Virus record (IMG/VR): IMGVR_UViG_3300020473_000023
Span: 1-64,000 of that record
DNA: 64,000 nt
Direction: 5' to 3' (one strand)
Source of the DNA: a virus
Below the pieces are notes generated by a model. The model was not told where the DNA came from, ran no database searches, and was given only the letters and a program-made list of their open reading frames with translations. The position numbers and the translations under genes were made by a program. Positions 1 to 56,505 of the stretch are shown here, in pieces. Position 1 is the stretch's first letter; every line of letters begins with the position of its first letter.

Positions 1-274
1 CCTGCGATGATCTCTGAAGGGAGTATAGGGTCACAGCGTTTCCGTACTTTTCCCTACCGATCGTCGGGCCCCTGTGTCCCAGGGTGTCACGAATGTAATT
101 AAAAAAGTCCTCGTCCTGATTCTTGATTGTTCTCATCAGGACGACTCTTCGAGTGCCATCCTCACTTAGAAGCTGAATGTCGTGCCGGATGGCTTCGCGC
201 ATCAGCTCCTTTCTTCGAATCAGCTCCTCCTCCTCTCGAATGATTTGCATAAGCTTTCTTCTACTAATTTTCAA
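1..274 (-). CDS. Partial protein with N-terminal tag MKISRRKLMQIIREE (runs off the window; not in the ORF track)
   Basis: Hand translation from TTG at 274 is open to the window edge; GAGGAG SD upstream; ATAATTA motif at 311-317. Confidence 0.8.
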   Translation of the reverse strand, partial: MKISRRKLMQIIREEEELIRRKELMREAIRHDIQLLSEDGTRRVVLMRTIKNQDEDFFNYIRDTLGHRGPTIGREKYGNAVTLYSLQRSSQ

Positions 275-316
275 GGCCCTTCTCCTCGCACAAAGATAGA
301 TAACATAGACTAATTA

Positions 317-556
317 TTACACACCTGGGCTACTTACCACCTCAAATTGCCAATAGGGAGAGTTAAACTTCATAAGAACGCCGCCAACCAGGACAGTTCG
401 CGTAACTAGAAATGCGGCGGTAGGATCATCTGCCGCTCCGATCAGCGTTTCCTGCGTCTCAATGAACAGCCCAATGTGCTCCTCGGAGACTGGTGAGTGT
501 TCGGGACGCCGAACGCGAACTAGGTCTCCGGCCTTAGCTCTCTTATAGTCTTTCAT
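317..556 (-). CDS. Small GDLV-family SH3/KOW-like protein
   Basis: MKDYKRAKAGDLVRV...IGLFI...FEVVS; start moved to ATG 556 to avoid overlap. Confidence 0.65.
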   Translation of the reverse strand: MKDYKRAKAGDLVRVRRPEHSPVSEEHIGLFIETQETLIGAADDPTAAFLVTRTVLVGGVLMKFNSPYWQFEVVSSPGV

Positions 557-597
557 GTCTCTTTTTCGTAGCCGAACCTCGGCTAATTCTATTCCCC

Positions 598-1413
598 TCA
601 ACCACCGTGATGGGATTCTCCTGAGATCATATCCTCTAGATGATCGAAGATTGCCGCCCGTGTTGACTTGGGGCACGTTGATCCACTCATCCGCATAAGA
701 CTTTCAATGGCCATGTCAATTAGATCTGGATTTGCCTGAAGAAACATTCGAACCTTGTCATAGCTTTCGGAGTGAGGAGCATCTCTCGTCTCATCTTCTC
801 CACCTAGCCCCATCATTCCTGCCTGGCGGCCTAGTCCCATTGCCTCTTCAGGTGAAAGGTCAGAAAGGTCGCCTGTATAGTCAAAAACCTCTCTCTCATC
901 GTGACCGCTAGCATACCCTGCACCAAAAGCTTCTTCCGGAGACATCATATCTTCTTCTGGAGGTTCAACCATCGACATTATCTGATCCTTCATGTCACAT
1001 CTATTGCATGTTCCGCATCCACAGCCGTGTCCTTCTCTAATAAGCTTAGCTGCTTCTTGAATCACCATTGTTCTTAAATTCATATTTCTTTCCTCATTAT
1101 TTTCTAAATCAGCTTCGCAGGCAGCATAGCCAACTCCTGCTGCCTCACCAGGCGTTAGAGAGTCGGGATCGTGAGACCATGATATTGAATCATGTGGGCC
1201 TGCGTTGCTCTCTTGTGTTTCAAAGTATGCGTGATCAAGGTTGTCCTCAATGTTATCCCCTCCAGCCCAGGCATCTTCTCTTGGTACAACTTCCGCAGGA
1301 TGAAATGCATCTGTTACATCCCTAGGTTCCACTTCAATTGGTAGCGGGGAGATTAAAACAAGCCCAATCTCTTCCTGAATAATTCTTTTCAATCTTTCTC
1401 TAGTCACAGTCAT
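598..1413 (-). CDS. Acidic tagged protein with SPEEAxGxG repeats and a CGCGTC motif; putative virion/head protein
   Basis: MTVTRERLKRIIQEE tag; internal LRTMVIQE; REDAWAGGDN motif; three (S/T)P(E/G)EAxGxG repeats. Confidence 0.7.
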   Translation of the reverse strand: MTVTRERLKRIIQEEIGLVLISPLPIEVEPRDVTDAFHPAEVVPREDAWAGGDNIEDNLDHAYFETQESNAGPHDSISWSHDPDSLTPGEAAGVGYAACEADLENNEERNMNLRTMVIQEAAKLIREGHGCGCGTCNRCDMKDQIMSMVEPPEEDMMSPEEAFGAGYASGHDEREVFDYTGDLSDLSPEEAMGLGRQAGMMGLGGEDETRDAPHSESYDKVRMFLQANPDLIDMAIESLMRMSGSTCPKSTRAAIFDHLEDMISGESHHGG

Positions 1414-1436
1414 GATATATTCTCTATCACAAATAA

Positions 1437-1634
1437 CTATTTTGATTCAAGGGTAACGATCCATGATTCTGCAACATTTTTTACGCTTCCTCCAACGAGG
1501 ACTGCCCACATTCTGTACCTCTCATCGTAGTGGGTGGACAAAGATCTTATGACAAGTCCAAATTCTCGTCGAACCTCCCTATCGGGAGGAACTACTAAGA
1601 CAACGTCACCTGACCTAATCCAACCCTTAGTCAT
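1437..1634 (-). CDS. Small GDLV-family protein
   Basis: SGDVVLV...FGLVI...AVLV pattern; overlaps the upstream gene's stop. Confidence 0.65.
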   Translation of the reverse strand: MTKGWIRSGDVVLVVPPDREVRREFGLVIRSLSTHYDERYRMWAVLVGGSVKNVAESWIVTLESK

Positions 1635-2003: not shown

Positions 2004-2219
2004 TCAAGAAGATTCAGATATGACCTCTATCATTGATCCGCTTCTCTCGGTGGTCATAAAGCAGCGCTGACCTTCTGAAAGGACGTAGACATGATCTTGA
2101 GAGATGTGGGTGATCATTCCCCTTCTGGGAATAGATGTCATGACGACCTCGCTCTTGCCAGCTCGTGATATGACGTACATTCCTGAGAAACTAATCAGAT
2201 CGCCTGCCTTGTATTTCAA
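2004..2219 (-). CDS. Small GDLV-family protein
   Basis: MKYKAGDLI...RGMI...EVISE. Confidence 0.65.
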   Translation of the reverse strand: MKYKAGDLISFSGMYVISRAGKSEVVMTSIPRRGMITHISQDHVYVLSEGQRCFMTTERSGSMIEVISESS

Positions 2220-2457
2220 TTTCGCTTATCACCTCAAAATGCTTAGGGGACACCCACGAAGTAACTCTTTCTCCTTTTGTAGACATCGCCTTCGCATTAA
2301 TAGGTATGTCGCTGCCCATCCACATGACTCTAATTCTGTGGTGATATTCTGATTCAGGAGAGCTTTGATCAATGATCATTCCCATGGGTCGGTCAAATGA
2401 GACAACATCACCCCAGTACATCTTTACATTGTATATCACTAGATCGCCAATCTTCAT
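2191..2457 (-). CDS. Small GDLV-family protein
   Basis: MKIGDLV...MGMII...VMW...FEVISE; start moved to ATG 2457. Confidence 0.7.
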   Translation of the reverse strand: MKIGDLVIYNVKMYWGDVVSFDRPMGMIIDQSSPESEYHHRIRVMWMGSDIPINAKAMSTKGERVTSWVSPKHFEVISEIEIQGRRSD

Positions 2458-2470
2458 TTTTAAGCTCAAT

Positions 2471-2734
2471 TTATTTTTCGTAATATGGGTTTTCCGCTTT
2501 GTCATGATCTGTAAGATCTACGATGTCTGTCACTTCTGGAAACTCTTCTGTGAGATACGCGCTAACCTGACCTTGCAGCGTTTGTTTAGAAGCAGCGCAG
2601 CCTTGACAACCTCCACTAAGTGAAACATACAGAATGCCCTCTCCATCAATGTTTTCGACAGCTAGGTGGCCTCCATGTCCTGCAAGAGCTGGGTTGATAT
2701 ACTCATTAACAAAATGCCTTATCTTTTCAATCAT
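2471..2734 (-). CDS. NifU/NfuA-like Fe-S cluster carrier domain protein
   Basis: INPALAGHGG...LSGGCQGC motif and NfuA-like C-terminal DLTDH...NPYY. Confidence 0.9.
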   Translation of the reverse strand: MIEKIRHFVNEYINPALAGHGGHLAVENIDGEGILYVSLSGGCQGCAASKQTLQGQVSAYLTEEFPEVTDIVDLTDHDKAENPYYEK

Positions 2735-2737
2735 GCT

Positions 2738-5441: not shown

Positions 5442-5518
<77 letters not shown>

Positions 5519-5524
5519 AATAAA

Positions 5525-5600
<76 letters not shown>

Positions 5601-7262: not shown

Positions 7263-7424
7263 TCACACAGATCCTTTGTATGCCTCTCTCAAAAGCTTTC
7301 TAATTAGCAACCTGGTCTTTTCAGACTCTGAAAGCTTTGGCTTCTCAATTTTTTCTTTTGATCCGGGATCTTTTAAAGCTTCGCTAATTAAAATCTCTCT
7401 CAGCTGTCTTCTGGAAATTTTCAT
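7263..7424 (-). CDS. 53-aa protein made almost entirely of two tag motifs (not in the ORF track)
   Basis: MKISRRQLREILISEA...LLIRKLLREAYKGSV; GAGGA SD; ATAGTTA at 7440-7446. Confidence 0.75.
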   Translation of the reverse strand: MKISRRQLREILISEALKDPGSKEKIEKPKLSESEKTRLLIRKLLREAYKGSV

Positions 7425-7475
7425 GGCTTCCTCATAAGATAACTATATCTCGCAATATGAAATAGTATTCACTGT

Positions 7476-7727
7476 CTAGACTTCTTCTTCAGATTCGTCT
7501 AAAAGCCCAAGAGACTTAAGATAGTCTGATATCTGCCTATTCACAGGAACATCACTATATGCACTTCGGGAAGGACCTTCAGGCCAGCCGCCGTGTGACG
7601 TATCCCTGTCTAGAAACAGATTGCTGTCAGTTGCGGTGACATACCGCTGGTCGGGATAAGAGCCACCTGTGGACTTTTTAAGCCGCTCCCTTATGATGGT
7701 GCGAAGTTGTGTCTCGCTAATCTTCAT
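7476..7727 (-). CDS. Tagged hypothetical protein
   Basis: MKISETQLRTIIRER N-terminus. Confidence 0.75.
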   Translation of the reverse strand: MKISETQLRTIIRERLKKSTGGSYPDQRYVTATDSNLFLDRDTSHGGWPEGPSRSAYSDVPVNRQISDYLKSLGLLDESEEEV

Positions 7728-9559: not shown

Positions 9560-9621
9560 TATAGACTTCTCGTAACTTTATTTGATCGACATTATAAATA
9601 TATCGCTCAGAAGACAATAGC

Positions 9622-10410
9622 CTATAGAGCAGTTCTTATAATTCTTCTAATATTCCTTCTAGTCCTGCGGTCCGAAATGTCAGCAAGATTTGAGATTCCT
9701 CGGAGTATTTCTACCTCATCAATCATGTGAGCAGGCGTCACCCAGATAATGTCCTCAATTACCTGTGGGACAAATGCCCTCTCAACAGAAACGCCCCACA
9801 AGATTCCTACAAACCTTCCCCTGTCGTCATACACCCCGGAACCTGAACATCCGAACCATCCGTATGTGTGGAGCATGACAACAGGACCGTTCGGAACTGT
9901 GTGCTCATATCCGGCAACTGTTCCTCTGATTGACATCAAGTTTAAATCTGAAGGGTAGCCAGAATATAGTGTAGTTGTTCCAATAGATGCGCTTATATCA
10001 AGAGGTCTATATCTCATCGGAGACTGTCCCTCAATAGGCTCAACTAAAATTGCTGCAACGTCAATGTCCCTGTCTTGATAGACTAGTCTTCCAACTGTTC
10101 TTGAATCACCTCTGCCAACTATCTCATAGGGGTCTCCAAGAGCTCCCTCTGTAACGTGAGCAGCTGTTAGAATAAGGTGAAATCCTCGATACTTGATGTA
10201 TGTCCCAGATCCATGACCTCCTCCCGCAAGGACCTTCACAGCAGAGTCTCGAATTCTTCTCTCAGTGCTCCTAAGTGATGCTACATCTTGAACACCCGCG
10301 GAGGAAATGCTGGCATCATTAATAAGATGTGCCTCTGTGACCTCATCAGCGGCAAAAGAACTTAGGCAAAAAGCCCAAAACAATAAAGCAACCCTAAAAA
10401 TAAATTTCAC
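9622..10410 (-). CDS. Secreted trypsin-like serine protease
   Basis: Signal peptide; LTAAHV, DVA, GCSGSG catalytic triad motifs. Confidence 0.9.
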   Translation of the reverse strand: MKFIFRVALLFWAFCLSSFAADEVTEAHLINDASISSAGVQDVASLRSTERRIRDSAVKVLAGGGHGSGTYIKYRGFHLILTAAHVTEGALGDPYEIVGRGDSRTVGRLVYQDRDIDVAAILVEPIEGQSPMRYRPLDISASIGTTTLYSGYPSDLNLMSIRGTVAGYEHTVPNGPVVMLHTYGWFGCSGSGVYDDRGRFVGILWGVSVERAFVPQVIEDIIWVTPAHMIDEVEILRGISNLADISDRRTRRNIRRIIRTAL

Positions 10411-13535: not shown

Positions 13536-13564
13536 ATCATACCACAACAGTACTCGATTTACAC
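13536..13564 (-). promoter_or_regulatory. Class-E promoter GTGTAA-N17-TATGAT
   Basis: Exact spacing, one mismatch in the -10. Confidence 0.7.
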
Positions 13565-13798
13565 GTCTTGATCTTTTGTGCTAATTAGAACTAGTTCAAA
13601 GTTTCCGTACATATAGCAGGCACCACTAACATAAACGTGAAAATACCTTTCAATGTACATTCCCCCATCGTCTTCGCTGAATACGGAAAAAGAAGAGTCT
13701 ACAGGAACAGAATCAGCTTCCTCAACTAAAATTCCAAGCTTTCCGCACATGCTATCTCTCATATCTGTGCTAACTTTAACAAGATCGCCTGGCTTCAT
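13559..13798 (-). CDS. Small GDLV-family protein
   Basis: MKPGDLVKV...LGILV...LVLIS. Confidence 0.7.
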   Translation of the reverse strand: MKPGDLVKVSTDMRDSMCGKLGILVEEADSVPVDSSFSVFSEDDGGMYIERYFHVYVSGACYMYGNFELVLISTKDQDV

Positions 13799-14785: not shown

Positions 14786-15022
14786 CTATAAGTCACTCAT
14801 GCAAGATAACGGCTTCAAATATACATCAGTTAAAAAAACAACTCTAGAGAAAGCAGGGGACATGACACCGTACTTTAAAAGTCTAACCCTCCTGTCAGGG
14901 TCAAACGTTCTTTCACTAGTATGTGTTCTTTCAACTATGATCCCTACGGAATCAAGTGAGACACGCTTTCCCATATGGTTGGGGACATGAATATGTACGA
15001 CGTCACCAACACTATACTGCAC
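14786..15022 (-). CDS. Small GDLV-family protein
   Basis: YSVGDVV...VGIIV...LKPLS. Confidence 0.65.
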   Translation of the reverse strand: MQYSVGDVVHIHVPNHMGKRVSLDSVGIIVERTHTSERTFDPDRRVRLLKYGVMSPAFSRVVFLTDVYLKPLSCMSDL

Positions 15023-15476: not shown

Positions 15477-15553
15477 TGGCTCCCCCTGTTGGACTTGAAC
15501 CAACGACACCCGGATTAACAGTCCGGTGCTCTAACCAGCTGAGCTAAGGGGGA
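15477..15553 (-). tRNA. tRNA-Asn (GUU)
   Basis: CCGGA-CTGTTAA-TCCGG anticodon arm, CCA end. Confidence 0.97.
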
Positions 15554-15600: not shown

Positions 15601-16875
15601 TCACCTCTCCATCTTAATAACCACATCCCCTTTTGGCGGGTCAAAGGCTAGAGATCTTCCGGGAACAATTACCCAGGCCCGTCTTAGACGGCTTGGGCCT
15701 GGGCTAGAGCACTCACCGTCTGTCAAGACAATGTATCCATCAAACTTTCCAGCATTTTCTCGTGCGTGCCTGGCGACGGCATTAAAGCTAGTCCCACCGT
15801 ACCTGTGTCGAACAGGTGGGATATTTTGCCCCCTTCTCCATTCAATAGAGTTCTTCTCATCAACTTCAGTATCAAAGGGAAAGAGTGTAAAGTTGATCTT
15901 CTTTCCAAGGTTGTTAAGCTCTGCAAAGAGAAGTTCAATGCTATCAGATCCAACAGAACCAGATTGATCCATGTAGACGGCAATGTTTGCACTATGACCC
16001 CGTCGGATACCAGAGTGAATGTAGGGATACTTTCTATTAATCCTCTTCATAGTTCTACTCTTGTTCATCCGCTGGCTCCTTCCACAGAAGCTCTTAAGCA
16101 AAGTAGACCAGGGAATTGTATTGGAGACCATCTTTCTAAGATCCTCTCGAACAGATCCGGGAACAGATCCCCACTCTCCGCTACCATCACATCGCTTGAC
16201 TGCCTCAGAGACAGCCTGCCGGATCTTGCCCTCTACGATCTGACGATCTTCGTCGGACATCTCATCCCACTCGCCGTGGTCATCAATCATTACCTCAATG
16301 CCATCTCCTTGGCCCTGAATGGCTTCAGAGATCTCTTGGTCCTCCTGAAGCTTTCCAAAGTACCACTCGCTTGCCATCCCCTTGGGAAGTGACTCAATCA
16401 GGTCAGAGACCTTCTTCCACTTTTCAAGCAGGGCAGGATCTTCAACCTTGCTAAGATCAAGTGCCTTTCCTGGCATAAGACCACCCTCAGGAAGCTCCTT
16501 CTCCCTGATGAGGCCGTTGATTGCAAGGTCAGTCCCCCAGTTCCAGAGAATATGTGGGTCTTTCTTTCTGGACGTTACGTGCTTGTAAATCCAGTGATAG
16601 CACTCATGCTTCATAAGCCCTCTAACTTGAATGGGCTTTAAGCTCGCAAGGAACTTCGGGTTCCAGAAGAGTGTGGGATCCTGGTCAACAACTCCGATCC
16701 CAGCGGTTGAAATATCAGCCTTTCTCTTATTGAACTTACGAAGAACATGGCTAAAGAATGGCTCGTGAAGCATTAGATTGATGAGGTGGGGATCCAGTTC
16801 AAATGATGCTGCTTCCTCATCGGAAACCTCGTCAACTGTGACAGGAACATCGGTTTCAGTAGTCTTACCTTTCAT
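15601..16875 (-). CDS. Metallopeptidase-VWA protein (DUF2201-like), MoxR partner
   Basis: HECYH zinc motif; DQSGS MIDAS, GGTSF and LTDG. Confidence 0.88.
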   Translation of the reverse strand: MKGKTTETDVPVTVDEVSDEEAASFELDPHLINLMLHEPFFSHVLRKFNKRKADISTAGIGVVDQDPTLFWNPKFLASLKPIQVRGLMKHECYHWIYKHVTSRKKDPHILWNWGTDLAINGLIREKELPEGGLMPGKALDLSKVEDPALLEKWKKVSDLIESLPKGMASEWYFGKLQEDQEISEAIQGQGDGIEVMIDDHGEWDEMSDEDRQIVEGKIRQAVSEAVKRCDGSGEWGSVPGSVREDLRKMVSNTIPWSTLLKSFCGRSQRMNKSRTMKRINRKYPYIHSGIRRGHSANIAVYMDQSGSVGSDSIELLFAELNNLGKKINFTLFPFDTEVDEKNSIEWRRGQNIPPVRHRYGGTSFNAVARHARENAGKFDGYIVLTDGECSSPGPSRLRRAWVIVPGRSLAFDPPKGDVVIKMER

Positions 16876-16891
16876 ATTTCCTCCTACCCCT

Positions 16892-16920
16892 ATTATAACA
16901 CAATTGGGGGTTGCTTACAT
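16892..16920 (-). promoter_or_regulatory. Class-E promoter ATGTAA-N17-TATAAT; -35 box lies in the loop of a 10-bp inverted repeat (16905-16930)
   Basis: TGGGGGTTGC-ATGTAA-GCAACCCCCA. Confidence 0.75.
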
Positions 16921-16938
16921 GCAACCCCCAGTATTTAA

Positions 16939-18012
16939 CTATTGAAGATTTCGAGCTACTGTAACTGCTTCTAGAACAGCCTGACCCAAGAACTTGTGAA
17001 GACGAGTGATGTTATTAACCTCACCAGAATCCATCACGTTGTTCCAGAGAGAAACAAGCATCTCACCCGGAAGAGTCTTTGCGAATACAGAAATCCTCTT
17101 GCACTGCTCTGCTGTCCACTCATTATTCTTACAGTGCTCACTGATCTTGTCAATGATGGAATTAACCTTATCATTGCTCAGGTCACTGATCTTCTCAGAG
17201 AACTCTTCATAGCGATCAATGACGTCCTCTGCAGAGATTTGAAGATCGTAGTTCTTGACAAAATCAACAAAGGTGATTGCTGCCTCAGCTCCTACGAAAC
17301 CAAGTGACATTGCATAGAATCCAGAGGGAGTATTCCTTCCGCAGATGGAAGAGGGAGTCATCCCAGCAGACTTTAAAGAAGTATCAATCCGCTCCCAGGA
17401 GCGGGGAGATGGGTAAACCTTTCCAGGCTCAATTTGCCCGACATGTCGAAGGTGAGCGGGATGGTGGCTGATAAAGTCCACAACAACCTCGTCAATCCCA
17501 GCTGCCTTGGCCCACTCAATCCAGTCCTTATCAGTTGGCTCGAGGTCAACAACCCAGAATCGATCCAGCAATGCAGGATCCATCTCATTGACCTGATAGT
17601 CAGCGGATGCGTTAACTGCGCAGAAGATACGAGTTTCTGGGTGAAGCTTATGACCATTCAGCTCACGGTCTAGAACGAGCTGGAAAGCACACTGCATCAC
17701 TTCAGGGGTTGCCCGATTAACCTCATCAAGGAAGAGTGCAACAGGTTCCCGACAAGCTCGAAGCAGCCAGTCAACCGGTGCAAATCGAGTGACACCGTCA
17801 ACAAGCTCCGGGAGTCCGATGATATCTCCCTCAGTCATCTGTGCGAGACGTCGGTCAATAAGGTCAATCCCGGTGGAGCCGTCTTCCAGATCGATTGCTG
17901 CTGCAACCTGTCGGAAAATCTGAGACTTACCAATTCCGTGGGGACCTCTCACGAGGATTGAAACGTCAGAAGGTAGCGAGGAAGCTACGTTAACAAAAGT
18001 CTTGATGTCCAT
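16939..18012 (-). CDS. MoxR-like AAA+ ATPase
   Basis: GPHGIGKS, LFLDEVNRA, DPALLDRF, PSPRSW. Confidence 0.9.
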   Translation of the reverse strand: MDIKTFVNVASSLPSDVSILVRGPHGIGKSQIFRQVAAAIDLEDGSTGIDLIDRRLAQMTEGDIIGLPELVDGVTRFAPVDWLLRACREPVALFLDEVNRATPEVMQCAFQLVLDRELNGHKLHPETRIFCAVNASADYQVNEMDPALLDRFWVVDLEPTDKDWIEWAKAAGIDEVVVDFISHHPAHLRHVGQIEPGKVYPSPRSWERIDTSLKSAGMTPSSICGRNTPSGFYAMSLGFVGAEAAITFVDFVKNYDLQISAEDVIDRYEEFSEKISDLSNDKVNSIIDKISEHCKNNEWTAEQCKRISVFAKTLPGEMLVSLWNNVMDSGEVNNITRLHKFLGQAVLEAVTVARNLQ

Positions 18013-18765: not shown

Positions 18766-19188
18766 TTAAGTGCACCAACTTTCTTCAGGTTGTTCAAGAT
18801 CAGGTTGTTCTCTATAGTCAACTGTAATCTCTGTGCCGACAGGAAGGTCCCTGAGTGTATGCAATCTTCTAACGTTTCCGTCCATCACATTTGCACAATT
18901 CGGTTCCTCAGAGTGATTGTGGTATCTTCCGAGCTCGGTGACATCCCACCCACTCTCCGGCCTTCTGACGTGGCAGACACCAATCTCCTCTCCCTGTCTA
19001 AAATCTCTATCTGTAAATGCACCCATTCCCTGGATATCAGACTGTTGTATCACAAAATCTTTTCCAGTATTGTAGCCGAGACCGTAAGCCTCCTCGGGCC
19101 CCATGTCATCCAGATCACTGGGAGCAAGATGCATCTCAAGCTCTTCCCTAATGATTCTTCTTAGATCGGACCCTTTAATACGCATCAA
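18766..19188 (-). CDS. SET-domain protein-lysine methyltransferase with N-terminal tag
   Basis: SDIQGMGAF, RYHNHS..PNC, EITVDY; MRIKGSDLRRIIREE tag. Confidence 0.88.
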   Translation of the reverse strand: MMRIKGSDLRRIIREELEMHLAPSDLDDMGPEEAYGLGYNTGKDFVIQQSDIQGMGAFTDRDFRQGEEIGVCHVRRPESGWDVTELGRYHNHSEEPNCANVMDGNVRRLHTLRDLPVGTEITVDYREQPDLEQPEESWCT

Positions 19189-20249
19189 ACTCTCATTCGA
19201 GGAGGTAGAACTTCCATCTCAGATGCATAGTCTTCTGGTTGAACTCCAGCCCTCCAAGCATCGATGGGCATTCCATGCAACGCACTATTTCCGATCTGAT
19301 ACAGATTGCTATCATCTCCCGGGGTTGCTGTGGGCAAGCCTTTCGCTACAAGGACCTGGTTGGCCCAATCTAGAAATCTTGCCTGGACCCTACCCTGCAT
19401 CGCCCGCGCCTCGAAATCATCAAACATAGCCTGTTCAGATTCAAGGTCTGATGCCTCGCAGAGAAGTGTACCTGCCATCTTGTTCCAGCGACCCAGATCT
19501 ATACGGGATTCAGATAACTGGCTCAAATCCACATGTCCAGGAGGTAAGCCTCGAAGCTTTTCATCCAGGTCCATGTAACCTGTCGTACCCCCGGGCGGTC
19601 CGAGACCTTGTGCTTCTAGTGCAACCATCGAGAGCATGCTAGCCATCTGTTCTGGATCGTGAGTGTCACGTTCGAAATCGACGAGCAGTTTATTGTATGC
19701 TTTCTCAAAGTGGCCATAGTTATCAGGTGTGGCGAGATCTGACCTATATGCTTTAAGCTTATTCCAGGCTGCTCTCTGTCTCGGTCGCCAGTGGGCGGGA
19801 GGCTTGCTGGGTAAGATGTTCGCACTTGGATCCCCTCCATGTTGGGCATACGGGTCTCCATGGTATACTTCAGAAAGACTTGAAAACTCTTCCTTAATCA
19901 TTCTCTTTAGGTCTGCTTTATTTATCTTCATCTCTCTCATTCCTACCATATTTTGTGGGACTGTGAAGTCTCCGCTGTCAACCTTAGCTCTTATCTCATC
20001 CAGTGCGCTGTCAACATATGATTCAAATGTCGGCTTATCAACATTCATAGTCTGATACTGTTGAGTTGTCTCCCACTCTGTAGTTAGCCCCTTCCAGTGG
20101 TTGATCTCCCCCATTGCAGATCTGACGATGGCATTTCTCATGAACGGCCCAGTGTCCTCAAGAGACATCTGAGTCCTGGGCGCTGGACCTGACTGAGCCT
20201 GAAATTGCTCTCTAATGATCTTCCTAAGCTGGCTGATCGTGATTTTCAT
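19185..20249 (-). CDS. Multi-tag putative virion protein
   Basis: MKITISQLRKIIREQ at the start, internal MKINKADLKRMIKEE and RWNKMAG motifs. Confidence 0.7.
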   Translation of the reverse strand: MKITISQLRKIIREQFQAQSGPAPRTQMSLEDTGPFMRNAIVRSAMGEINHWKGLTTEWETTQQYQTMNVDKPTFESYVDSALDEIRAKVDSGDFTVPQNMVGMREMKINKADLKRMIKEEFSSLSEVYHGDPYAQHGGDPSANILPSKPPAHWRPRQRAAWNKLKAYRSDLATPDNYGHFEKAYNKLLVDFERDTHDPEQMASMLSMVALEAQGLGPPGGTTGYMDLDEKLRGLPPGHVDLSQLSESRIDLGRWNKMAGTLLCEASDLESEQAMFDDFEARAMQGRVQARFLDWANQVLVAKGLPTATPGDDSNLYQIGNSALHGMPIDAWRAGVQPEDYASEMEVLPPRMRV

Positions 20250-21398: not shown

Positions 21399-21489
21399 GA
21401 TAGTCTCCTGCAAATAAATATTCTCGTTAAGTTGATTATCTTGAACAAAGACGAGGCGCAGTGTATTGTTTAAATGACACGGAGGAGTC

Positions 21490-24874: not shown

Positions 24875-24959
<85 letters not shown>

Positions 24960-34826: not shown

Positions 34827-34862
34827 AGACTATAAATATTGCTGACACATCCATTTAACAGG

Positions 34863-37881: not shown

Positions 37882-38616
37882 CTATACAGAGACGTTAAAC
37901 TCTTCGTCTCTTTCAATGTCTTCATAGATTCCAAATCGAAGTCTTAGAATCTTTTCTTCTCTTGGCGAAAGCTTTCTTAAAGAGCTCTTAATCACCTCGA
38001 GTGTTTTTTGTCTATCGAGGGCTGCATCAGGCGTCTCTGTCCTGTCATCAGAGATAATCTCTTCAAACCTTCTTCCATTTTTTTCATCGCCGAGTGCAGC
38101 ATCTAATGAAATTGAATTTTGAACAGCTGCAGATTCAAGACTAAGCTTGATCATCGCTTCTGTTACGCCAAGCAAGTCTGCAATCTCACTAGTAGTGGGC
38201 TGGTGTCGAAATTCATCTTCATATTCCTTGCAAATTCTTTTAATTTTCCATATTAAGCCAGAAGCATGAGCAGGAACTCTAACAGTCGACTTATGAGAGC
38301 TCAAGTGCCGACTCACAGACTGTCTAATCCACCAGCTGGCATATGTGCTAAATTTAAAACCTCGTCTCCAGTCAAATCGATCAACAGCTTTCATAAGCCC
38401 AATATTTGATTCCTGGATTAAGTCCTCTAAATCACAGCCCATTTTAGAATATTTTTTTGCAATACTGATCGCTAGTCGAAGATTACACTGAATCATTCTA
38501 TCTCTAGCGTGAAGATCACCATTTTCAATGGCTTGAGAGAGAATAACTTCTTCTTCTCGAGTTAAAAGGTCGTATCTTGATACATCTTTAAAGTAATAGT
38601 TTAATATATTTGACAT
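37882..38616 (-). CDS. Sigma70 (RpoD/RpoS-like) factor truncated before the region 4.2 recognition helix
   Basis: LLTREEE, NLRLAISIAKKY, DLIQE.NIGLMKAVDRFD..RGFKFSTYASWWIRQ, SLD, LSPREEKILRLRFGI then stop. Confidence 0.9.
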   Translation of the reverse strand: MSNILNYYFKDVSRYDLLTREEEVILSQAIENGDLHARDRMIQCNLRLAISIAKKYSKMGCDLEDLIQESNIGLMKAVDRFDWRRGFKFSTYASWWIRQSVSRHLSSHKSTVRVPAHASGLIWKIKRICKEYEDEFRHQPTTSEIADLLGVTEAMIKLSLESAAVQNSISLDAALGDEKNGRRFEEIISDDRTETPDAALDRQKTLEVIKSSLRKLSPREEKILRLRFGIYEDIERDEEFNVSV

Positions 38617-40069: not shown

Positions 40070-40116
40070 TGCAAGAAGCCCCCGTGTGAATAAATATCAT
40101 CCACAGTAGGTAAAAT

Positions 40117-41727
40117 CTACAACTGATGAAACTCAGCTTGGTCCTCGTCTACCATCGTGCATCCGACAGTAAGCATCATAGATGCAGCTGAGGAAGCATT
40201 CTCCAGTGCAGTTCTAACAACCTTTAAAGGATCTATAATTCCCATCTCCATCATATCACCATACTCATCTGAAAATGCGTTGTAGCCAAGATTCTTTTTC
40301 ATTCCAGTAACCCTGTCTAGAACAACATCCGGTGTTCCTCCAGAATTAATTACGATCTGTCTCAAGGGTTCAGAGCATGCTCTTCTTACAATCTGCCTTC
40401 CAGCCTCGAATCCAGACATAGCATCTGCATCATTATTAGAAAGTATGCTCGCTGCCCTAACAAGGGCAACTCCTCCGCCAGGTAAGATCCCTTCTTCTAT
40501 TGCTGCCTGAGTAGCGTGAAGCGCATCATCAACCCTGTCTTTTCTCTCCCGTAATTCAACCTCTGTCGCACCACCAACCTTAAGAACAGCAACACCACCA
40601 GAGAGCTTCGAAAGCCTATCTTTTAAAATCAACTCCTCAGCCTCTTCAAGAGCGGGGGATTTAAGCTGCTCCCGTATTGAAGTGACTCTTTCCTTAACAG
40701 CTGATTGATCACCTGAACATCCGATAAAGACGGTATTGTTTTTTCCACATATTATCTTTTTACACGTTCCAAGGTTTTCAATGCTGGCTTCTTTAAGAGA
40801 GGTCCCTGTCGTATCCGAGACAATATCACAATCTAAAAGAACGGCGAGGTCTTGAAGCATCGCTATTCTGCTTTCTCCAAATCCAGGAGACTTAATTGCA
40901 CAAGACTCAAGTGTCCCTTTAAGGTGATTAACAACAAGACCCTGCATTGCATCTCCGTCGACATCATCTGCAATTACAAACAAGGGATGACCTGATTCGA
41001 GAACGACTTCAAGAATGTGCATAATATCTTTAAGATTTGTAATTCTAGAATTAGAAAGTAAAACATAGGGATTCTTAATCTCAGATATCATCTTGTCTTG
41101 ATTGTTGACAAAGTATGGAGACAGGTACCCTCTTTCAATATTCATTCCCTCTACAGTTGTTAAAGTAGTATTAAATCCTTTTGCCTCCTCAACTGTGATC
41201 ACACCATCTCTTCCAACAGAGTTAATTGCCTCAACTAAAAGAGATCCAATTTCTGTCTCCCCGTTGGCTGAAATAGTACCAACATGTTCTATTTCTTTAT
41301 CTGTTGTAACTTCAATAGAAAGCTCTCTTAGCTTGTCTATTACATCTGAGACTGCACTTTCGATACCCTTCTTAATTTCTGATGATTGAAATCCAGCAGC
41401 AAGCATCCGAACCCCCTCAGAAAATATTGATTGAGATAGAACTGTTGCTGTTGTGGTGCCGTCACCTGCAACTTCAGCCGTTCTAGAGGCTGCCTCTTTA
41501 ATAATTTGAACACCTAGATTGTCAAACTTATCTTTTAAATTTACAGCCCTGGCAACTGTAACCCCATCTTTTGTCAGGATTGGCGAGCCAGATTGTTGCT
41601 CAATGACTACGTTTTGACCTCTTGGTCCCATAGTTATTTTAACTGCATTTGCCAAGATATTTACTCCGGTTAGGAGCCTCTCTCTTGCAGAAACATCAAA
41701 CTTTATAATCTTATTTGTCTGAGACAT
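40117..41727 (-). CDS. groEL: Chaperonin GroEL
   Basis: TMGPRG, TKDGVTVA, AGDGTTTATVL, GGVAVLKVG, GIIDP; lacks the GGM tail. Confidence 0.96.
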   Translation of the reverse strand: MSQTNKIIKFDVSARERLLTGVNILANAVKITMGPRGQNVVIEQQSGSPILTKDGVTVARAVNLKDKFDNLGVQIIKEAASRTAEVAGDGTTTATVLSQSIFSEGVRMLAAGFQSSEIKKGIESAVSDVIDKLRELSIEVTTDKEIEHVGTISANGETEIGSLLVEAINSVGRDGVITVEEAKGFNTTLTTVEGMNIERGYLSPYFVNNQDKMISEIKNPYVLLSNSRITNLKDIMHILEVVLESGHPLFVIADDVDGDAMQGLVVNHLKGTLESCAIKSPGFGESRIAMLQDLAVLLDCDIVSDTTGTSLKEASIENLGTCKKIICGKNNTVFIGCSGDQSAVKERVTSIREQLKSPALEEAEELILKDRLSKLSGGVAVLKVGGATEVELRERKDRVDDALHATQAAIEEGILPGGGVALVRAASILSNNDADAMSGFEAGRQIVRRACSEPLRQIVINSGGTPDVVLDRVTGMKKNLGYNAFSDEYGDMMEMGIIDPLKVVRTALENASSAASMMLTVGCTMVDEDQAEFHQL

Positions 41728-43781: not shown

Positions 43782-44951
43782 CTATAAAGCCGGCTCTGCT
43801 TCAAGGGGTCGAATTTGCTGCAGTGTTTCTTCATAGATTGGCTTTATTGCTACTAGGATTGCCTCTTGGACTTCGGGTGAATCAGAGGAAGTCTCGCTTA
43901 CAATTCTATCAAGAGACCCCCCGATAACACCAGAAAAAATATCTGGAATTAAAACCCTTATTTGAGAAAATAAATCCTCAGACCCTGCCTGAATATCTTC
44001 GACAGTAACGTTTTCTCCAGTAATCTTTTTCACTCTTTGAGCAAGGACTTGCGGGGTAAAAGACCCTGATTCTCCGGGTTTTCCCATAAGAGAAGAAAGG
44101 CTTATAGCAAGTGAATTTAAATCTTGAGAAGACATGGCATCACGATACATTACCAATAGATTGTCCATGTCTAATCTGGCAGAATTTGACAATTCAGAAA
44201 CTACTTCTGGAACCTGTGACACATCAATCTGTGGCAGCACTTCTTGAGCTGGGTCAGGAAGTTCACCCAATCCATCATCAGGCTCTTGAAGGTCATCAAT
44301 CTCTGGATCAACCTCAACGACTTCAGGATCTATTTGACTCTGATCAATGGGCTCTAGATCGACAAGAGGCTCATCTTCTAAGGGTGTAGCCAAGATAGTT
44401 TCTTGTGCCTCTTCCTCTTCCTCTGCAGCCGCCTCAATCGCATCGTCAACTATTTTATCTGCCTCTGCCTCTTCTCCAGCCCTAGCCTCATCTGCCTCTA
44501 ATAAAAAATCAAGCGACATATTTTCAAGACTGAACGTATCAAGTGAATAGTGAATGCTTTCTGTTGCAAGGCCAGTTGTCTGAAGAATTCCTGGACGCTG
44601 CTGCGTACGCCCGAGAAAACCTCGTGCCTTTCTAAGTGTTGTAGCTTGATTGGTCACGATGCTTTCATAATCCGGAGTCCCACCCCCAAGAAGTCCCTTC
44701 ATCCCTTCAGCACCTATCTTAAATACTGATTCAGCTCCCTTGTAGGCAGCAACACCAGCGTAAGCAAGAGATGAGACAACACCTATGGCATGCCCTATTA
44801 TCTTCTTAACAGAACCTATCCACCCAATAACGTCAGGCATAGTACCCACACCGACAGACTGACCGGCACGTCGGACGTCTCCTCGATCTTTTCGTTCAGC
44901 AATTAAAGACTCTCTAATAAACTGACGGATTAATTTTTCATTTGAGCTCAC
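43782..44951 (-). CDS. Tagged acidic hypothetical protein
   Basis: NEKLIRQFIRESLIAE; GTG start at 44951 after GGGAG. Confidence 0.65.
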   Translation of the reverse strand: MSSNEKLIRQFIRESLIAERKDRGDVRRAGQSVGVGTMPDVIGWIGSVKKIIGHAIGVVSSLAYAGVAAYKGAESVFKIGAEGMKGLLGGGTPDYESIVTNQATTLRKARGFLGRTQQRPGILQTTGLATESIHYSLDTFSLENMSLDFLLEADEARAGEEAEADKIVDDAIEAAAEEEEEAQETILATPLEDEPLVDLEPIDQSQIDPEVVEVDPEIDDLQEPDDGLGELPDPAQEVLPQIDVSQVPEVVSELSNSARLDMDNLLVMYRDAMSSQDLNSLAISLSSLMGKPGESGSFTPQVLAQRVKKITGENVTVEDIQAGSEDLFSQIRVLIPDIFSGVIGGSLDRIVSETSSDSPEVQEAILVAIKPIYEETLQQIRPLEAEPAL

Positions 44952-45203: not shown

Positions 45204-46679
45204 TCATCTATTCATTCCCAGCAAGAGCATCTCTCTGACGAACTCTCTTAGGAGCGATTCCCGAATCTTATCATACATGACAAATCCACTTTCTTGCCCT
45301 TGGGGCGACATCTGAACATCTCCAATTGTAATATCTTCCTTGTTAACAGCCCTAGCTGGATCAAGCATAACAGCAGCTTTTGCCCTATCTGCTATCACGA
45401 TTTGAAATCTAAGGCCCATTATCGGCTTGACGGGAGATGATTCCGAGTCTCCAGCGGGAGGTGAAAGATATTTCTTAGGCCTTCCTGCAGAACCGGTTAT
45501 AATTACTGTAGGTTTCTCATTTGGAGAGAGGTCATCAATAGAAGAGTAGACAGATCCAGGTATAGTGAGTGTTTTTGTGGATGGGTCCCATTCTCCTACG
45601 GGCTCATCGGCGTAATAGTCTCCTTTAAGGACAAGGTCTGCTCTATTTTCTCCAGACCCAAAGACAGCATGCTCCATAAACTCAGGACCCAAATACTCAT
45701 CTGGAACTGTAAAGTTGGTTCTAATCTGTTGACCATCCTTTTCAACAACCATCTTAGAGCCCGCTTGATTTGGACCTGCTCCAACTATCTTTGCTATTCC
45801 CCCACCGTCAACCTCGACTCCAGAACCTTCCAGGGCCTGAAGGAGCGGGCTTAGCAGGGGAAAGGACATGTCCGCAGAGAGCCAGTGACCAGCATTTATC
45901 ATTTTCATGCTGACACCTATCTCACTCTCACCTCCGTTGTACACAATGTCGACATCACTCTTTGAGGTAACTCCGCCCTTCTTTTCTGTTCCGGCAGCCT
46001 TGGCGCTAATAACTCCCTTAAGTGACGTATTATTCTTGCCTTTCCGATCCAGAAAGACAACAGTTAAAGGATAATCTCGACCGAGATCCGACTCATACGG
46101 GGGAAGCCCTTGCACAGCAAGATTTATGTCATCAGTGACTCTTTCTTCGCTTATAATCCCTAGAGACTTCGAGCCTCCTGCCCCTTGGACCTTAAATGCA
46201 AGTTTTTGATGAGGTGTAATGTCATCTTTCCCTGTCTTTGTAAACTGGCCAAGAGATTTAACAAACTCAATTGGACCAAGGCCCTGTGGGCCTTGCATGA
46301 CCTGAACTTTTATTCCTTGATTTTTCACCATTTTCTGGAGAGCCTGAGCCCCTGACTCTCTCTGCTCCTGGTCTTTTCCAGAAATTAGTGAGAGGTTCTC
46401 AAGAAATGTAATTATCTCTCGATTGTGTGGATCATCTTTGAGAATTATACCTTGAATAAATTCTTCTGGATAAAGATCTCCGTCAATGGAAGCTTCTTTG
46501 CGAACGCTAATTGTAAAGTAGTCGCCTGTTCGGATCTTCTCCAGCATTATTAAAAATCTATCAGGCCTACCGGCACTGCTCTTTGGCTTTGATAGCTCTC
46601 CAGCAGTCAGCCCGACCCGATTGGCTTCTAGAAAAAGCTCTCTTATGTACTGTCTAAGAAGTGACTCAGAAATCATCAT
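45204..46679 (-). CDS. Double-tagged protein with a PD-(D/E)xK-like nuclease motif
   Basis: N-terminal SESLLRQYIRELFLEA and C-terminal RESLLREFVREML; KSDVDI...GVSMK. Confidence 0.6.
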   Translation of the reverse strand: MMISESLLRQYIRELFLEANRVGLTAGELSKPKSSAGRPDRFLIMLEKIRTGDYFTISVRKEASIDGDLYPEEFIQGIILKDDPHNREIITFLENLSLISGKDQEQRESGAQALQKMVKNQGIKVQVMQGPQGLGPIEFVKSLGQFTKTGKDDITPHQKLAFKVQGAGGSKSLGIISEERVTDDINLAVQGLPPYESDLGRDYPLTVVFLDRKGKNNTSLKGVISAKAAGTEKKGGVTSKSDVDIVYNGGESEIGVSMKMINAGHWLSADMSFPLLSPLLQALEGSGVEVDGGGIAKIVGAGPNQAGSKMVVEKDGQQIRTNFTVPDEYLGPEFMEHAVFGSGENRADLVLKGDYYADEPVGEWDPSTKTLTIPGSVYSSIDDLSPNEKPTVIITGSAGRPKKYLSPPAGDSESSPVKPIMGLRFQIVIADRAKAAVMLDPARAVNKEDITIGDVQMSPQGQESGFVMYDKIRESLLREFVREMLLLGMNR

Positions 46680-53068: not shown

Positions 53069-53104
53069 ATTCTAACCCTCAAAGGATAAATATGGACCAA
53101 TGGT

Positions 53105-53980: not shown

Positions 53981-53982
53981 TT

Positions 53983-54228
53983 CTAACCATTCTTTCCATG
54001 CTTCCATGAAATCGCAGCGTCAATAACTGTTTGACCGCCAATATAGATCATTGCAATCATACCCCAAGAGTCAGCATCTAAAAAATTATAAACAAGTAAT
54101 CCTGTGGCTGCTAAAAACACAAAGAACTTTCTTGAGATTAGTCGTCCCATTATCCTATCCAGAAAGCCAAGTTTTTCACCTTCTGCTATCGCCTTAACTT
54201 CTCTCATGACAATTTCATCATCACCCAT
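53983..54228 (-). CDS. Putative holin
   Basis: SRKFFV followed by two TMs and YI.G...D. Confidence 0.55.
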   Translation of the reverse strand: MGDDEIVMREVKAIAEGEKLGFLDRIMGRLISRKFFVFLAATGLLVYNFLDADSWGMIAMIYIGGQTVIDAAISWKHGKNG

Positions 54229-54866
54229 AGTATCTCTCCTTAATGAAATATATCATCATCGTCAACTTTGTGAAATGAATAATCACTTTCCATATCTTCT
54301 ATGGATATTTCTGTTAGGTCTGAATTGCTAAAATTCTTTATTCTATCTACCTCTAGGGTAAGCTCTTTTTGAACTGAAGTTAATCCGTACTGATTGACAG
54401 CGACCTGCTGAATGACTTCACTGTGGATGTCTTGAATCTTAGAAATTTTTACTATAATTTCTGAAATTGAATCTATGTGACTGGAGTCTTCAATAATCTT
54501 TGAGAACTTCTTTGGCTTCATTGAAAAAAGCTTCCATAAATTTCTTAAAAAATAAAAAAGTCTCATACACTACTCCGAAGACAGAGGGTTGTCTGTCTCA
54601 ATCACACTAAATATTGACTCTGCATCAGTGTCAGAAAGCCTTCCAATTGCCTTATCTCTCTTCTTTTTTTGAATTTCTTCAAGTATGTCAATCATATCTG
54701 GATTTGCCACTGCAATTCTTTGAACTATCTCTTCAAGAACCTCTTGCATTGAAAGGCTATGCTTAAAGCATGCAATTCTAAAATGCGAATGGGTCTCTCG
54801 CAACAGGGAAAAGTGAACTGACTTCTTTGTTTCAAAATCAATAAGCTTATCATTCATCTCAAGTCA

Positions 54867-55475
54867 CTAGTCTCCGCCAGTAGCGGGCAAGCCTTCAGGG
54901 TCACCAATAGCACCGATTCCTGGCTCTCTCCCACCAGCAAGTGCAGAAGCAGGTTCTCTAATAGGGGCTATATTGAAATCAAAGTTTGTATCTAGAATAT
55001 TTTTAAATTCATCTATATAACCTTGGTCATAATTTTCGTCTAAGAAGTTAATAGCTCTATTTATTATAACAGTAGGGATATCTAGTCTAGCTCGGTATCC
55101 CAAGGCTAGTTGGGCAACTTTTTTAGTAAAAGAGTCAATATTCATTGCAGGACGCTTGGCAGGCTCTACAGGAGCAGATACATCGATATCTTCGCTTCCG
55201 ACGGGATCTTCAACTCCTGGGTCTTCCGGGGCTAGATTTTCATCTTGCTCAAATAGAAATGCTGATAGATTAAGATTGCTCAATGACTCAGTGACAAGAT
55301 CATCTGAGCTGACTATTGAACTAGCCTCGAAGTCAATCATGTGTGAGTCAATTTGATCGTCAACTGAATCCATAGACAGCCTGACTTTTGTCGAAGCATC
55401 TGCCATTGAAACAGGTTGATTTTCTTCATCCTGCTCTAGGATCATCTTCCTAAGATCATTAATTGAAATTTTCAT
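54867..55475 (-). CDS. Tagged acidic protein
   Basis: MKISINDLRKMILEQ; internal FLFEQ. Confidence 0.7.
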   Translation of the reverse strand: MKISINDLRKMILEQDEENQPVSMADASTKVRLSMDSVDDQIDSHMIDFEASSIVSSDDLVTESLSNLNLSAFLFEQDENLAPEDPGVEDPVGSEDIDVSAPVEPAKRPAMNIDSFTKKVAQLALGYRARLDIPTVIINRAINFLDENYDQGYIDEFKNILDTNFDFNIAPIREPASALAGGREPGIGAIGDPEGLPATGGD

Positions 55476-56203
55476 GAGAACCTCAGTGCTTGTGCAATCT
55501 TTTCTGCTCTTTCAAACCTTGACTCAATTACAGGCCAGTTGAGCTGTTTCATCATTCCATAGGTATATGTCTTAGCATCCTTAAGATAATCTCTATAATA
55601 TGCATGCTGCCAAACGTCCATCACTATAATCGGATATCCGCCAAATGGAACATTTAGACTGTGAAGGTCAACAATAGTATTGACATACCTTTGCAAGTAT
55701 GTATTAAAATAGGTCACAGCCCAGCCGCAGCGAGATGCCATACAGCAAGCTATAAAATCTTTTTGCCAGGCATCGAACGTTCCAAAGTCACGCTCCAGCC
55801 TCATATATGCCAAAGAGTCCATTCCGATTTGACTGTGTAGATCGCTAATATTTGCAAAATAAAGCTCATGCAAATAAATGGCATTCATGTTATATGTTTC
55901 ATCAATCTTAAGTGCTCTGTACTGAGAATGATTTGAGCTTACCTCTTCTCTATTTGCTGAGTCCAGCTGAGCACTGATTTTATTGAAATCATCAATGTAT
56001 TGCTCGTAAAGCTCAAGATGGTTTGTCTTATTTTGCTTACTTAAAAGCTCAGTGGGCAAATTAAACACCTTGTCTTGAGCGACATATGCTTCTTTGACTA
56101 AATTATTTCCCGGAATATCAGTCTCAGCATCAGTAGTGGGTTCTTCTTTATCAATTCCCAGGGTTTCTCTTATGTTCTTAATGATTTCTTCTTCTGTGAT
56201 CAT
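55472..56203 (-). CDS. Fe/Mn superoxide dismutase-family protein with N-terminal extension
   Basis: H..LY..Y, LHELYF, DFGTFD.W, GWAV, MDVWQHAYY. Confidence 0.88.
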   Translation of the reverse strand: MITEEEIIKNIRETLGIDKEEPTTDAETDIPGNNLVKEAYVAQDKVFNLPTELLSKQNKTNHLELYEQYIDDFNKISAQLDSANREEVSSNHSQYRALKIDETYNMNAIYLHELYFANISDLHSQIGMDSLAYMRLERDFGTFDAWQKDFIACCMASRCGWAVTYFNTYLQRYVNTIVDLHSLNVPFGGYPIIVMDVWQHAYYRDYLKDAKTYTYGMMKQLNWPVIESRFERAEKIAQALRFS

Positions 56204-56208
56204 TGAAA

Positions 56209-56505
56209 CTACATCCTTTCATATTTAGAAATATCTGATGAAGGTATGGCATAATAGTCACCGTTTTCATCATCTTTAACTATTAAGACAGCCCCATCGG
56301 GTCGATCCAATAGCTTAACACAGGTGTAAGTATATCCTGAGTCTTTGTTTCGTATCTTAAACCCCTTGCTTATTAGGGAGGTTCTATCGTCTCCCACACC
56401 TGCAAATAGGGAAATACCATCCCCTTCGGAGATATCAGAGTCTTTCTTCTTTCTTTCAGACTCTATTATTTTTAAAATATTGCTTTTAGACAAGACAGTT
56501 GTCAC
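56209..56505 (-). CDS. Tagged small protein
   Basis: LSKSNILKIIESE; ATAATTA at 56528-56534. Confidence 0.6.
   Translation of the reverse strand: MTTVLSKSNILKIIESERKKKDSDISEGDGISLFAGVGDDRTSLISKGFKIRNKDSGYTYTCVKLLDRPDGAVLIVKDDENGDYYAIPSSDISKYERM

Follow-up and report, generated by a model that had tools for sequence, protein, structure and literature searches.

Conserved leader peptide on unrelated phage proteins

The window analyzed here is the first 64 kb (64,000 nucleotides) of the IMG/VR contig IMGVR_UViG_3300020473_000023 (G000; 106,284 bp). Across this contig, 15 proteins whose bodies are mutually unrelated (BLASTP) carry the same kind of short leader peptide. We read this leader as a head-loading, prohead-targeting propeptide, comparable to the capsid-targeting sequence (CTS) of phage T4, that would be cut off within the head; we put the probability of this reading at roughly 0.6. 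According to this model, the leader would be an amphipathic helix of 14 to 20 residues, existing in two interchangeable classes, with a flexible linker between it and the cargo. Late in infection, as we infer, the helix would dock the cargo on the scaffolding core of a T4-type prohead, and a gp21-family protease, which cuts after [LI]-x-Glu, would clip the helix at Glu14. Clipping would free the cargo within the head and might be followed by its ejection into the host. If the helix is recognized rather than a chain end, the tag would also work C-terminally and between the modules of fused proteins with several leaders.

To assess the motif itself, the strict regular expression L[RK]x[IMFY][IV][RQ]E was applied to the contig proteins. 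It matched 11 times, compared with a mean of 0.05 in 500 shuffles; the motif is therefore not equally frequent in shuffled proteins, and eight of the 11 matches sit at N-termini. A leader profile run over all six-frame open reading frames (ORFs) of the 106-kb contig gave 18 sites of at least 11 bits, every one on the coding strand and together spread over 15 proteins, while the best reversed-sequence control reached 6.3 bits. Because this profile was seeded by the same sites that it scores, the independent support comes from the regular-expression test. The window holds 13 N-terminal leaders, and two of those proteins have an additional C-terminal copy. The leader copies spell the same residues with differing codons, which indicates selection on the peptide, and a DNA-level repeat as the source of the motif was rejected for the same reason.

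Two classes of leader were distinguished. Class 1 reads MKI[ST]xxQLRxIIRE (also given as MKI[ST]KRQLRRIIRE), and class 2, which the original prediction had called a sister motif, reads Mx(0-5)LLREYIRELLxE. Class 2 had 22 matches in 11 loci, compared with none in reversed sequences, and both classes co-occur within the same genomes. The kinase body of the gene starting at 34826 carries either a class 1 or a class 2 leader in other phages, and the body of gene 7727 was found untagged in two other phages. The tag is thus modular, and the classes look interchangeable. Conservation of the hydrophobic residues I3, L8, I11, and I12 suggests a protein–protein contact. An arginine-rich nucleic acid–binding helix of the lambda N or Rev type was considered and rejected, since one kinase family carries the neutral-to-acidic class 2 (LLREYIRELLxE) in place of class 1.

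Distribution of the leader among viruses

To determine the distribution of the leader, a degenerate DNA pattern for M-K-I-[ST]-x3-L-R-x-I-I-R-E was used. With an information content of about 40 bits, this pattern is estimated to give less than one match by chance in IMG/VR, where at least 120 stretches matched. Among the matches listed, 121 nonredundant tagged ORFs (median 120 aa) fell into 97 unrelated body clusters past residue 20. In these ORFs, the free positions of the pattern converge on K-R-Q, and conservation fades to a G/D/P/S-rich linker by residues 22 to 32. Pfam has no family for the tag and gave no significant domain in the 97 bodies; five of them matched PHROGs, all of unknown function. 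A 32-column leader profile retrieved 4,806 representative proteins at E ≤ 1e-3 from a library of 1.84 billion proteins. In 596 Gb of prokaryote genomes, the pattern was found in only four metagenome-assembled genomes, on contigs (305 kb at most) that probably represent mis-binned phage. These results show that the leader is widespread and virus specific.

Some library proteins hold two or three leaders, and true in-frame fusions are among them; the second leader of P0017 starts with Phe and not with Met. Copies were found at the N-terminus, at the C-terminus, and internally, as had been proposed from the DNA, and always in the same orientation. In this the leader differs from terminus-specific degrons of the Clp/ssrA type, which must lie at a free N- or C-terminus.

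Full-text literature searches for the leader strings found no paper, and the reviews of T4 heads and of jumbo phages do not describe the leader; the system is undescribed in the literature searched. Against annotated phages, a megablast search with 13 kb gave no match, and neither did tblastn with the 23-aa leader, where a 14-residue match is estimated to be unable to reach significance.

Putative cleavage motif in the leaders and its avoidance in the cargo

In T4, gp21 cleaves after L/I-X-Glu, and Asp at P1 stops processing by gp21 but not targeting (PMC9026906). The motif [LI]-x-E, with Glu at residue 14, is present in 12 of the 14 N-terminal leaders, which bears out the earlier description of tags ending in I-R-E, L-L-E, or I-L-E. 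Class 2 leaders hold two adjacent [LI]-x-E sites.

Cargo that meets an [LI]-x-E protease should shun the motif, and the occurrence of [LI]xE in cargo bodies was therefore compared with the expectation from composition. In 296 tagged bodies, [LI]xE stood at 0.92 of expectation (confidence interval [CI] 0.82–1.01), compared with 1.21 (1.16–1.26) in 841 untagged neighbors and 1.26 in size-matched neighbors. Five control motifs ([LI]xD, Ex[LI], Dx[LI], [LI]xK, and [LI]xQ) lay at 1.26 to 1.31 in the tagged set, with [LI]xD at 1.29. In 150 independent library proteins, [LI]xE was reduced to 0.83 (0.72–0.94) and [LI]xD rose to 1.47. Such a swap of Glu for Asp fits what the published P1 specificity would predict. 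The test could serve as a general computational probe of the exposure of a protein set to a prohead protease.

Head genes of the phage clade

The contig is about 40% complete (CheckV), corresponding to a full jumbo genome of roughly 265 kb, and its minus strand holds nearly all of its genes. Judged by the 77 to 94% identity of its ClpP-like protein with those of G001, G014, and G020 and by a common gene order, the contig is a member of the same clade; the order of a 600-aa protein followed by gp32 is common to the contig and its relatives. Complete clade genomes carry at least 15 to 22 canonical leaders each, mostly in tight arrays, whereas the leaders of the present contig are scattered, more divergent, and on larger proteins.

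Peptidase_S77, the family of T4 gp21, was detected in 15 of 30 large leader-bearing contigs, in all 11 leader-bearing contigs of at least 184 kb, and in all four that are at least 90% complete. The prohead protease to which the original prediction had pointed is thus encoded by large leader-bearing relatives, although none was found on the 40%-complete contig. A gp23-type capsid protein was present in each of the five leader-bearing contigs checked. The head modules of G021 and G001 run from terminase, portal, gp21, and small core proteins to a scaffold-like protein and then gp23. The capsid protein of the clade matches 2,579 phage records, and the matches listed are all T4-like or related large myoviruses.

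Where T4-like gp23 has F-L-T-E|A-E-I, the clade gp23 reads Q-L-L-R-E|A-N-S, with matching anchors on both sides; the predicted maturation site of the capsid protein, which corresponds in place to the maturation cut of T4, therefore ends in [LI]-R-E, like the leader. The clade gp21 keeps KLLTEW where T4-like gp21 has QLLIETW; LIE-9 of gp21 has been noted before (PMC9026906). The small core protein encoded two genes after gp21 starts with MAKLSRSALKSVVKECLVEIL in every genome examined, a start that looks leader-like in a qualitative sense, and two further gp21-adjacent proteins contain leader-like peptides at about 9 to 11 bits.

Promoter-like element upstream of tagged genes

The element ATAnTTAT occurs in 17 coding-strand copies in the contig, 12 of them no more than 60 nt ahead of a start codon. 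It precedes six tagged genes (Fisher p 1.6e-4), for example at 1433–1440 on the minus strand, 27 nt upstream of the tagged gene 1413; like elements lie at 7439–7446, 9594–9601, 27452–27459, 34832–34839, 36486–36493, 40090–40097, and 53086–53093. Other copies precede the 600-aa protein with internal tags and an operon with a tail-spike-like gene. Behind the 12 start-proximal copies in the contig, no recognized DNA-metabolism gene was found. In G021 and G001, ATAnTTAT also precedes portal, core-block, and scaffold-like genes, and among the matches listed, the words that recur most often ahead of the tagged IMG/VR genes are TATATTTA and ATATTTAT. An enrichment behind late promoters had been suggested as a check; tagged genes are enriched behind ATAnTTAT, a putative late promoter, and the canonical T4 late promoter TATAAATA precedes none of the contig genes. 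A sigma-70-family factor is encoded at 37882–38616 of the window (phrog_351, E 2e-60) and may read ATAnTTAT.

Comparison with known packaging systems

The facts on T4 that the original prediction had drawn on, namely cleavage by gp21 after L/I-X-E, targeting by the CTS, and internal proteins with a shared CTS, agree with the literature (PMC9026906, PMC5694885, PMC3012670). The first 10 residues of T4 IPIII suffice for head targeting (PMC9026906), the T-even internal proteins are diverse with the CTS as their only common part (PMC3012670), the T4 CTS string is MKTYQEFIAE (10.1101/2021.01.19.427310), and T4 Alt is trimmed at both ends (PMC5694885). Like the CTS of IPI, IPII, IPIII, and Alt, which gp21 removes, the leader is a short N-terminal peptide on otherwise unrelated proteins that starts with M-K, is amphipathic, and ends in [LI]-x-Glu. 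As in T4, the clade has T4-type gp20, gp21, and gp23 genes, and its cargo genes are hypervariable. Alt also provides a precedent for propeptides at both ends. Whereas the T4 CTS is 10 residues long, the leader spans 14 to 20 residues, comes in two classes, and is nearly invariant. In place of the handful of T4 proteins, each genome has 15 to 25 or more genes for cargo, and the families number in the thousands. Unlike the CTS, the leader also occurs in copies that sit C-terminally or between the modules of fusion proteins.

The giant phages related to phiKZ (phiKZ, 201phi2-1, and SPN3US) bring numerous proteins into their heads, where a gp21-related protease trims them after Glu, the counterpart here being predicted from genes; the redundant cleavage sites of their propeptides are a further likeness. 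However, phiKZ-like propeptides mostly exceed 100 residues, share no short leader, and are cleaved at S/A/G-x-E rather than L/I-x-E (PMC5694885, PMC9026906). The lineage of the phiKZ-like phages also differs from that of the leader clade. Encapsulin cargo-loading peptides, short terminal peptides on flexible linkers, bring diverse enzymes into an HK97-fold shell from either terminus. They bind the shell protein directly, are not removed by a protease, and do not belong to a phage system, and the sequence motif of the leader is unrelated to theirs.

Evaluation of the head-loading model and its alternatives

The head-loading proposal made from the DNA alone is now joined by four indirect lines that fit it: gp21 and gp23 in the clade, [LI]-x-E in the leader and at the capsid site, the promoter-like element, and the avoidance of the motif in cargo. 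Several observations weigh against it. No gp21, gp23, or other head gene was found on the 40%-complete contig, and its link to head genes therefore rests on clade membership; since the contig is a genome fragment, the absence of gp21 and gp23 is uninformative. Profile comparisons in both directions gave no link above noise between the leader and the N-terminus of the gp21-adjacent core protein. The leader has no detectable homology to MKTYQEFIAE, its likeness being at the level of the pattern M-K..Q..[FI]-I-x-E, and its near-invariance is greater than the mutation-tolerant T4 CTS would require. After Glu14, the commonest residue is Glu, not the Ala or Ser of the capsid site. In the contig alone, [LI]xE stands at 0.77 (CI 0.46–1.20, n = 12) compared with 1.20, which is the same trend but not significant. 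That ATAnTTAT is a late promoter is itself something we infer, and the canonical T4 late promoter lies upstream of no gene of the contig. One tagged family, that of the 600-aa protein, is located in the replication module beside gp32. Finally, packaging, cleavage, and ejection are predictions from sequence.

Some of these observations would suit another reading, in which the leader is a docking helix for a noncapsid hub that gathers many unrelated proteins, be it an intracellular assembly or a protein of the virus or the host, and no head loading takes place. A leader far more conserved than a mutation-tolerant CTS needs, a tag that occurs at either end and internally, a tagged family adjoining gp32 in the replication module, and the failed profile link to head-core proteins all agree with such a hub. 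We consider it unlikely, though worth weighing, as it leaves unexplained the fixed [LI]-x-E at residue 14, the avoidance of [LI]-x-E together with the preference for [LI]-x-D in the cargo, and the promoter-like element common to tagged and head genes; moreover, the analysis brought up no candidate for the hub.

A degron or adaptor signal that hands the tagged proteins to a clade-wide ClpP-like protease, or to host Clp or Lon, for timed destruction is clearly less probable. A ClpP-fold protease is indeed encoded on the contig, at genome positions 84774–85376 (L002:774–1376), where it adjoins ribonucleotide reductase; out of 17 clade genomes searched, 11 hold counterparts of 61 to 94% identity and four others more distant relatives. 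The avoidance of a cleavage-type motif also shows exposure to some protease. Degradation of the ClpP type, however, is processive and not specific for [LI]-x-E, so it would not select against one tripeptide, and known Clp degrons are specific for a chain end, whereas the leader also occurs internally and C-terminally in the same orientation. G016 (58% complete) has gp21 and tags without a ClpP-like match, and thousands of families made just for degradation would be hard to explain. PHROGs gives the ClpP-like gene the label "head maturation protease," but its candidacy as the prohead protease was rejected, because relatives encode it alongside gp21 and at a distance of about 40 kb from the head module.

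It is similarly improbable that the 42-nt leader-coding DNA acts as a recombination handle or translation-initiation cassette whose peptide has no address function. The leader DNA of canonical arrays shows high similarity too and is rich in A, the genes stand back to back, and modular shuffling through conserved motifs has been described for T4-like phages (PMC4122927). In the present contig, by contrast, the peptide persists although its codons vary widely; there is a second leader class, there are copies at C-termini and inside proteins, and the motif avoidance in the bodies is a signal at the protein level. A role in DNA-level shuffling may add to that of the peptide but would be insufficient alone.

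Least probable of all is the recruitment of virus-encoded chaperones (GroEL, DnaJ, and DnaK) for the folding or holding of special clients: although the contig encodes GroEL (window 40117–41727) and a DnaJ-like protein (genome 65216–66286), DnaK adjoins a leader array in G001, and GroEL occurs in 11 of 13 large leader-bearing clade genomes, Hsp70 is present in just three of the 13 and was rejected as a universal reader, GroEL is absent from the complete genome G009 even though a tagged gene lies beside gp21 there, chaperonins are not known to recognize a specific N-terminal peptide, and neither [LI]-x-E at residue 14 nor its avoidance in cargo would be explained.

The head-loading reading can be taken further, with less assurance. 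Tentatively, and at somewhat less than even odds, marine T4-like jumbo phages would load dozens of proteins per virion by means of two position-independent leaders, trim them in the head, and inject them with the DNA; it is a comparably tentative step to count a SET-domain methyltransferase, a zeta-toxin-like kinase, and multileader polyproteins among this cargo. If the head-loading reading itself is right, one peptide marks the packaged, and probably injected, cargo of an abundant clade of uncultured ocean jumbo phages. At least 4,806 protein clusters would be marked, almost all without known fold or function; under the further reading, the leader would also offer a sequence handle on thousands of previously invisible phage-delivered effectors and anti-defense proteins. 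The question of which dark-matter phage proteins enter the host with the DNA would become a sequence search. Known in T4 from a handful of internal proteins, the CTS principle would extend to a large, modular system with two classes that functions at either end of a protein, and a new targeting peptide would be available for putting foreign proteins into large capsids.

Individual leader sites

All leader sites in the window listed here lie on the minus strand. Class 1 leaders of the MK[IL][ST] type had been noted at 274, 1413, 7424, 7727, 20249, 34826, 36466, and 55475, and all of these score at least 11 bits. The first, MKISRRKLMQIIREEE (227–274; 12.8 bits), has a TTG start and belongs to an ORF (2–274) cut by the contig end. 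The second, MTVTRERLKRIIQEE (1366–1413; 11.2 bits), begins a 271-aa acidic protein (598–1413) without a Pfam match. The 53-aa protein at 7263–7424 carries MKISRRQLREILISE at its N-terminus (7377–7424; 13.6 bits) and a leader-like helix, TRLLIRKLLREAYKG, at its C-terminus (7272–7316; 12.6 bits). Next to it, the 83-aa protein at 7476–7727 starts with MKISETQLRTIIRER (7680–7727; 18.8 bits).

The highest of these scores, 20.4 bits, belongs to MRIKGSDLRRIIREE (19138–19185) of the 139-aa SET-domain protein at 18766–19185. This leader, noted earlier at 19188, is genuine (at least 11 bits), but its start had been misplaced, 19188 being a TTG one codon upstream of 19185. The 354-aa protein at 19185–20249 has MKITISQLRKIIREQ at its N-terminus (20202–20249; 18.6 bits) and a weak internal second leader (MKINKADLKRMIKEE / MKINKADLKRMIKE; 19890–19931; 6.6–7.4 bits), which is probably a relic of a gene fusion. 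The 283-aa P-loop kinase of the Zeta-toxin/AAA_33 type (33975–34826) starts with MKISRRQLRRIIREELLRE (34779–34826; 19.6 bits). In the 178-aa protein at 35930–36466, the class 1-like leader MRLRLSEFRKIVRDELISLILE (36419–36466; 12.9 bits) is followed by a poly-Asp/Glu tract. The class 1 leader MKISINDLRKMILEQ (55428–55475; 13.5 bits) begins a 202-aa acidic protein (54867–55475) whose L004 ortholog is tagged too.

The sister motif had been noted at 26130, 27420, 44951, and both ends of the 46679 protein, and each of these sites also reached at least 11 bits. They comprise the class 2 leaders MDDVLREYIREALLAE (26083–26130; 13.7 bits) of a 299-aa protein (25231–26130), MSSEKILREYVREILIE (27373–27420; 12.1 bits) of a 255-aa protein (26653–27420), and VSSNEKLIRQFIRESLIAE (44904–44951; 13.0 bits), with a GTG start, of a 389-aa acidic protein (43782–44951), whose leader is kept in the L004 ortholog. 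The 491-aa protein at 45204–46679 carries MMISESLLRQYIRELFLEA at its N-terminus (46632–46679; 15.0 bits) and a C-terminal class 2 copy, RESLLREFVREMLLL (45219–45263; 14.5 bits). In seven homologs, down to 38% identity, its N-terminal leader is nearly invariant, and both copies are the best-conserved segments of the protein; a linker of variable length precedes the conserved C-terminal copy. AlphaFold predicted isolated helices at residues 5 to 19 and 474 to 490 of this protein, at a low confidence (mean pLDDT 47.5).

Other proposed sites were weak or did not hold up. The C-terminal class 2-like peptide ESLLREYI of the nucleotidyltransferase-like protein at 22641–23390 (22668–22691) scored 3.7 bits, which is not significant, and the degenerate versions proposed at 21398, 40069, 43282, 50367, 51348, 53068, 56203, and 56505 lay within noise with both the seed profile and an iterated profile built over 1.2 Mb of related DNA. 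The estimate of about 20 tagged proteins accordingly comes down to 15 in the contig and 13 in the window. The C-terminus of 9622–10410 gave a weak leader match of 6.6 bits.

Past the window, one further N-terminal leader was found (genome 95437), as well as two internal leaders in the 600-aa protein (genome 92361–94163). The positions of these internal copies are conserved in two relatives, and the gene lies just upstream of the gp32-like single-stranded DNA-binding protein gene. Members of this family upstream of gp32 (homologs in G020, G014, G001, and G004) end in a conserved G-P-V-T-P-L-G-T-G-P-D-G ... R-x-x-x-A-N-E-R-G-F-G-G-G; the G001 member has 288 aa and a leader-like start.

Cargo domains and neighboring genes

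Recognizable enzyme domains were found in only two tagged proteins: the SET domain on 18766–19185 (PF00856, E 8.6e-9) and the Zeta-toxin/AAA_33-type P-loop kinase domain on 33975–34826 (E 5.6e-9). The varied enzyme arsenal described earlier was thus overstated. Its superoxide dismutase and pterin dehydratase are real but not demonstrably tagged, its nucleotidyltransferase domain stays below the Pfam cutoff, and its HExxH peptidase comes down to nothing more than the string HELEH within the 27420 protein. Pfam, PHROGs, and PDB sequences gave no convincing match for the other tagged proteins tested, and PDB sequence searches with four large cargo proteins gave no match.

A MoxR-type AAA+ ATPase (phrog_1297) adjoins a 424-aa protein at window 15601–18012, both untagged. 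The 424-aa protein is probably not the HExxH peptidase of the original prediction, as it reads HEPFF, not HExxH, and PHROGs labels it an HNH endonuclease.

Two further short sequence elements recur among the proteins. The approximate peptide P-x-[DE]-V-x4-E-[DN]-[AV]-W-[AS]-G-G-[DE]-N occurs about 45 to 130 residues from the N-terminus in five proteins of four loci (window 598–1413 and 20733–21551, L021, L070, and L117), with none in the reversed control. The repeat [ST]-P-[EG]-E-A-x-G-x-G-[YR] follows the leader in three copies in 598–1413 and in one copy in 18766–19185 and, among the DNA compared, is present in this genome only.

Small proteins of 60 to 110 aa with an N-terminus of the M-K-x-G-D-L-V type (window 2004–2505, 13559–13798, 14786–15022, 29945–30139, 35592–35933, 36725–36937, and others) are probably a family of paralogs scattered among the tagged genes. 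Two adjacent paralogs at window 27985–29489 each match phrog_1458, a family of unknown function, in its C-terminal half, and one of them has a weak match to a DNA methyltransferase family as well. Seven tRNA genes are located at window 5442–5600, 15477–15553, 23634–23721, 24875–24959, 29519–29604, and 31914–31989; among them is a tRNA-Arg(TCT), which reads the AGA codons that are heavily used in the Arg-rich leaders.

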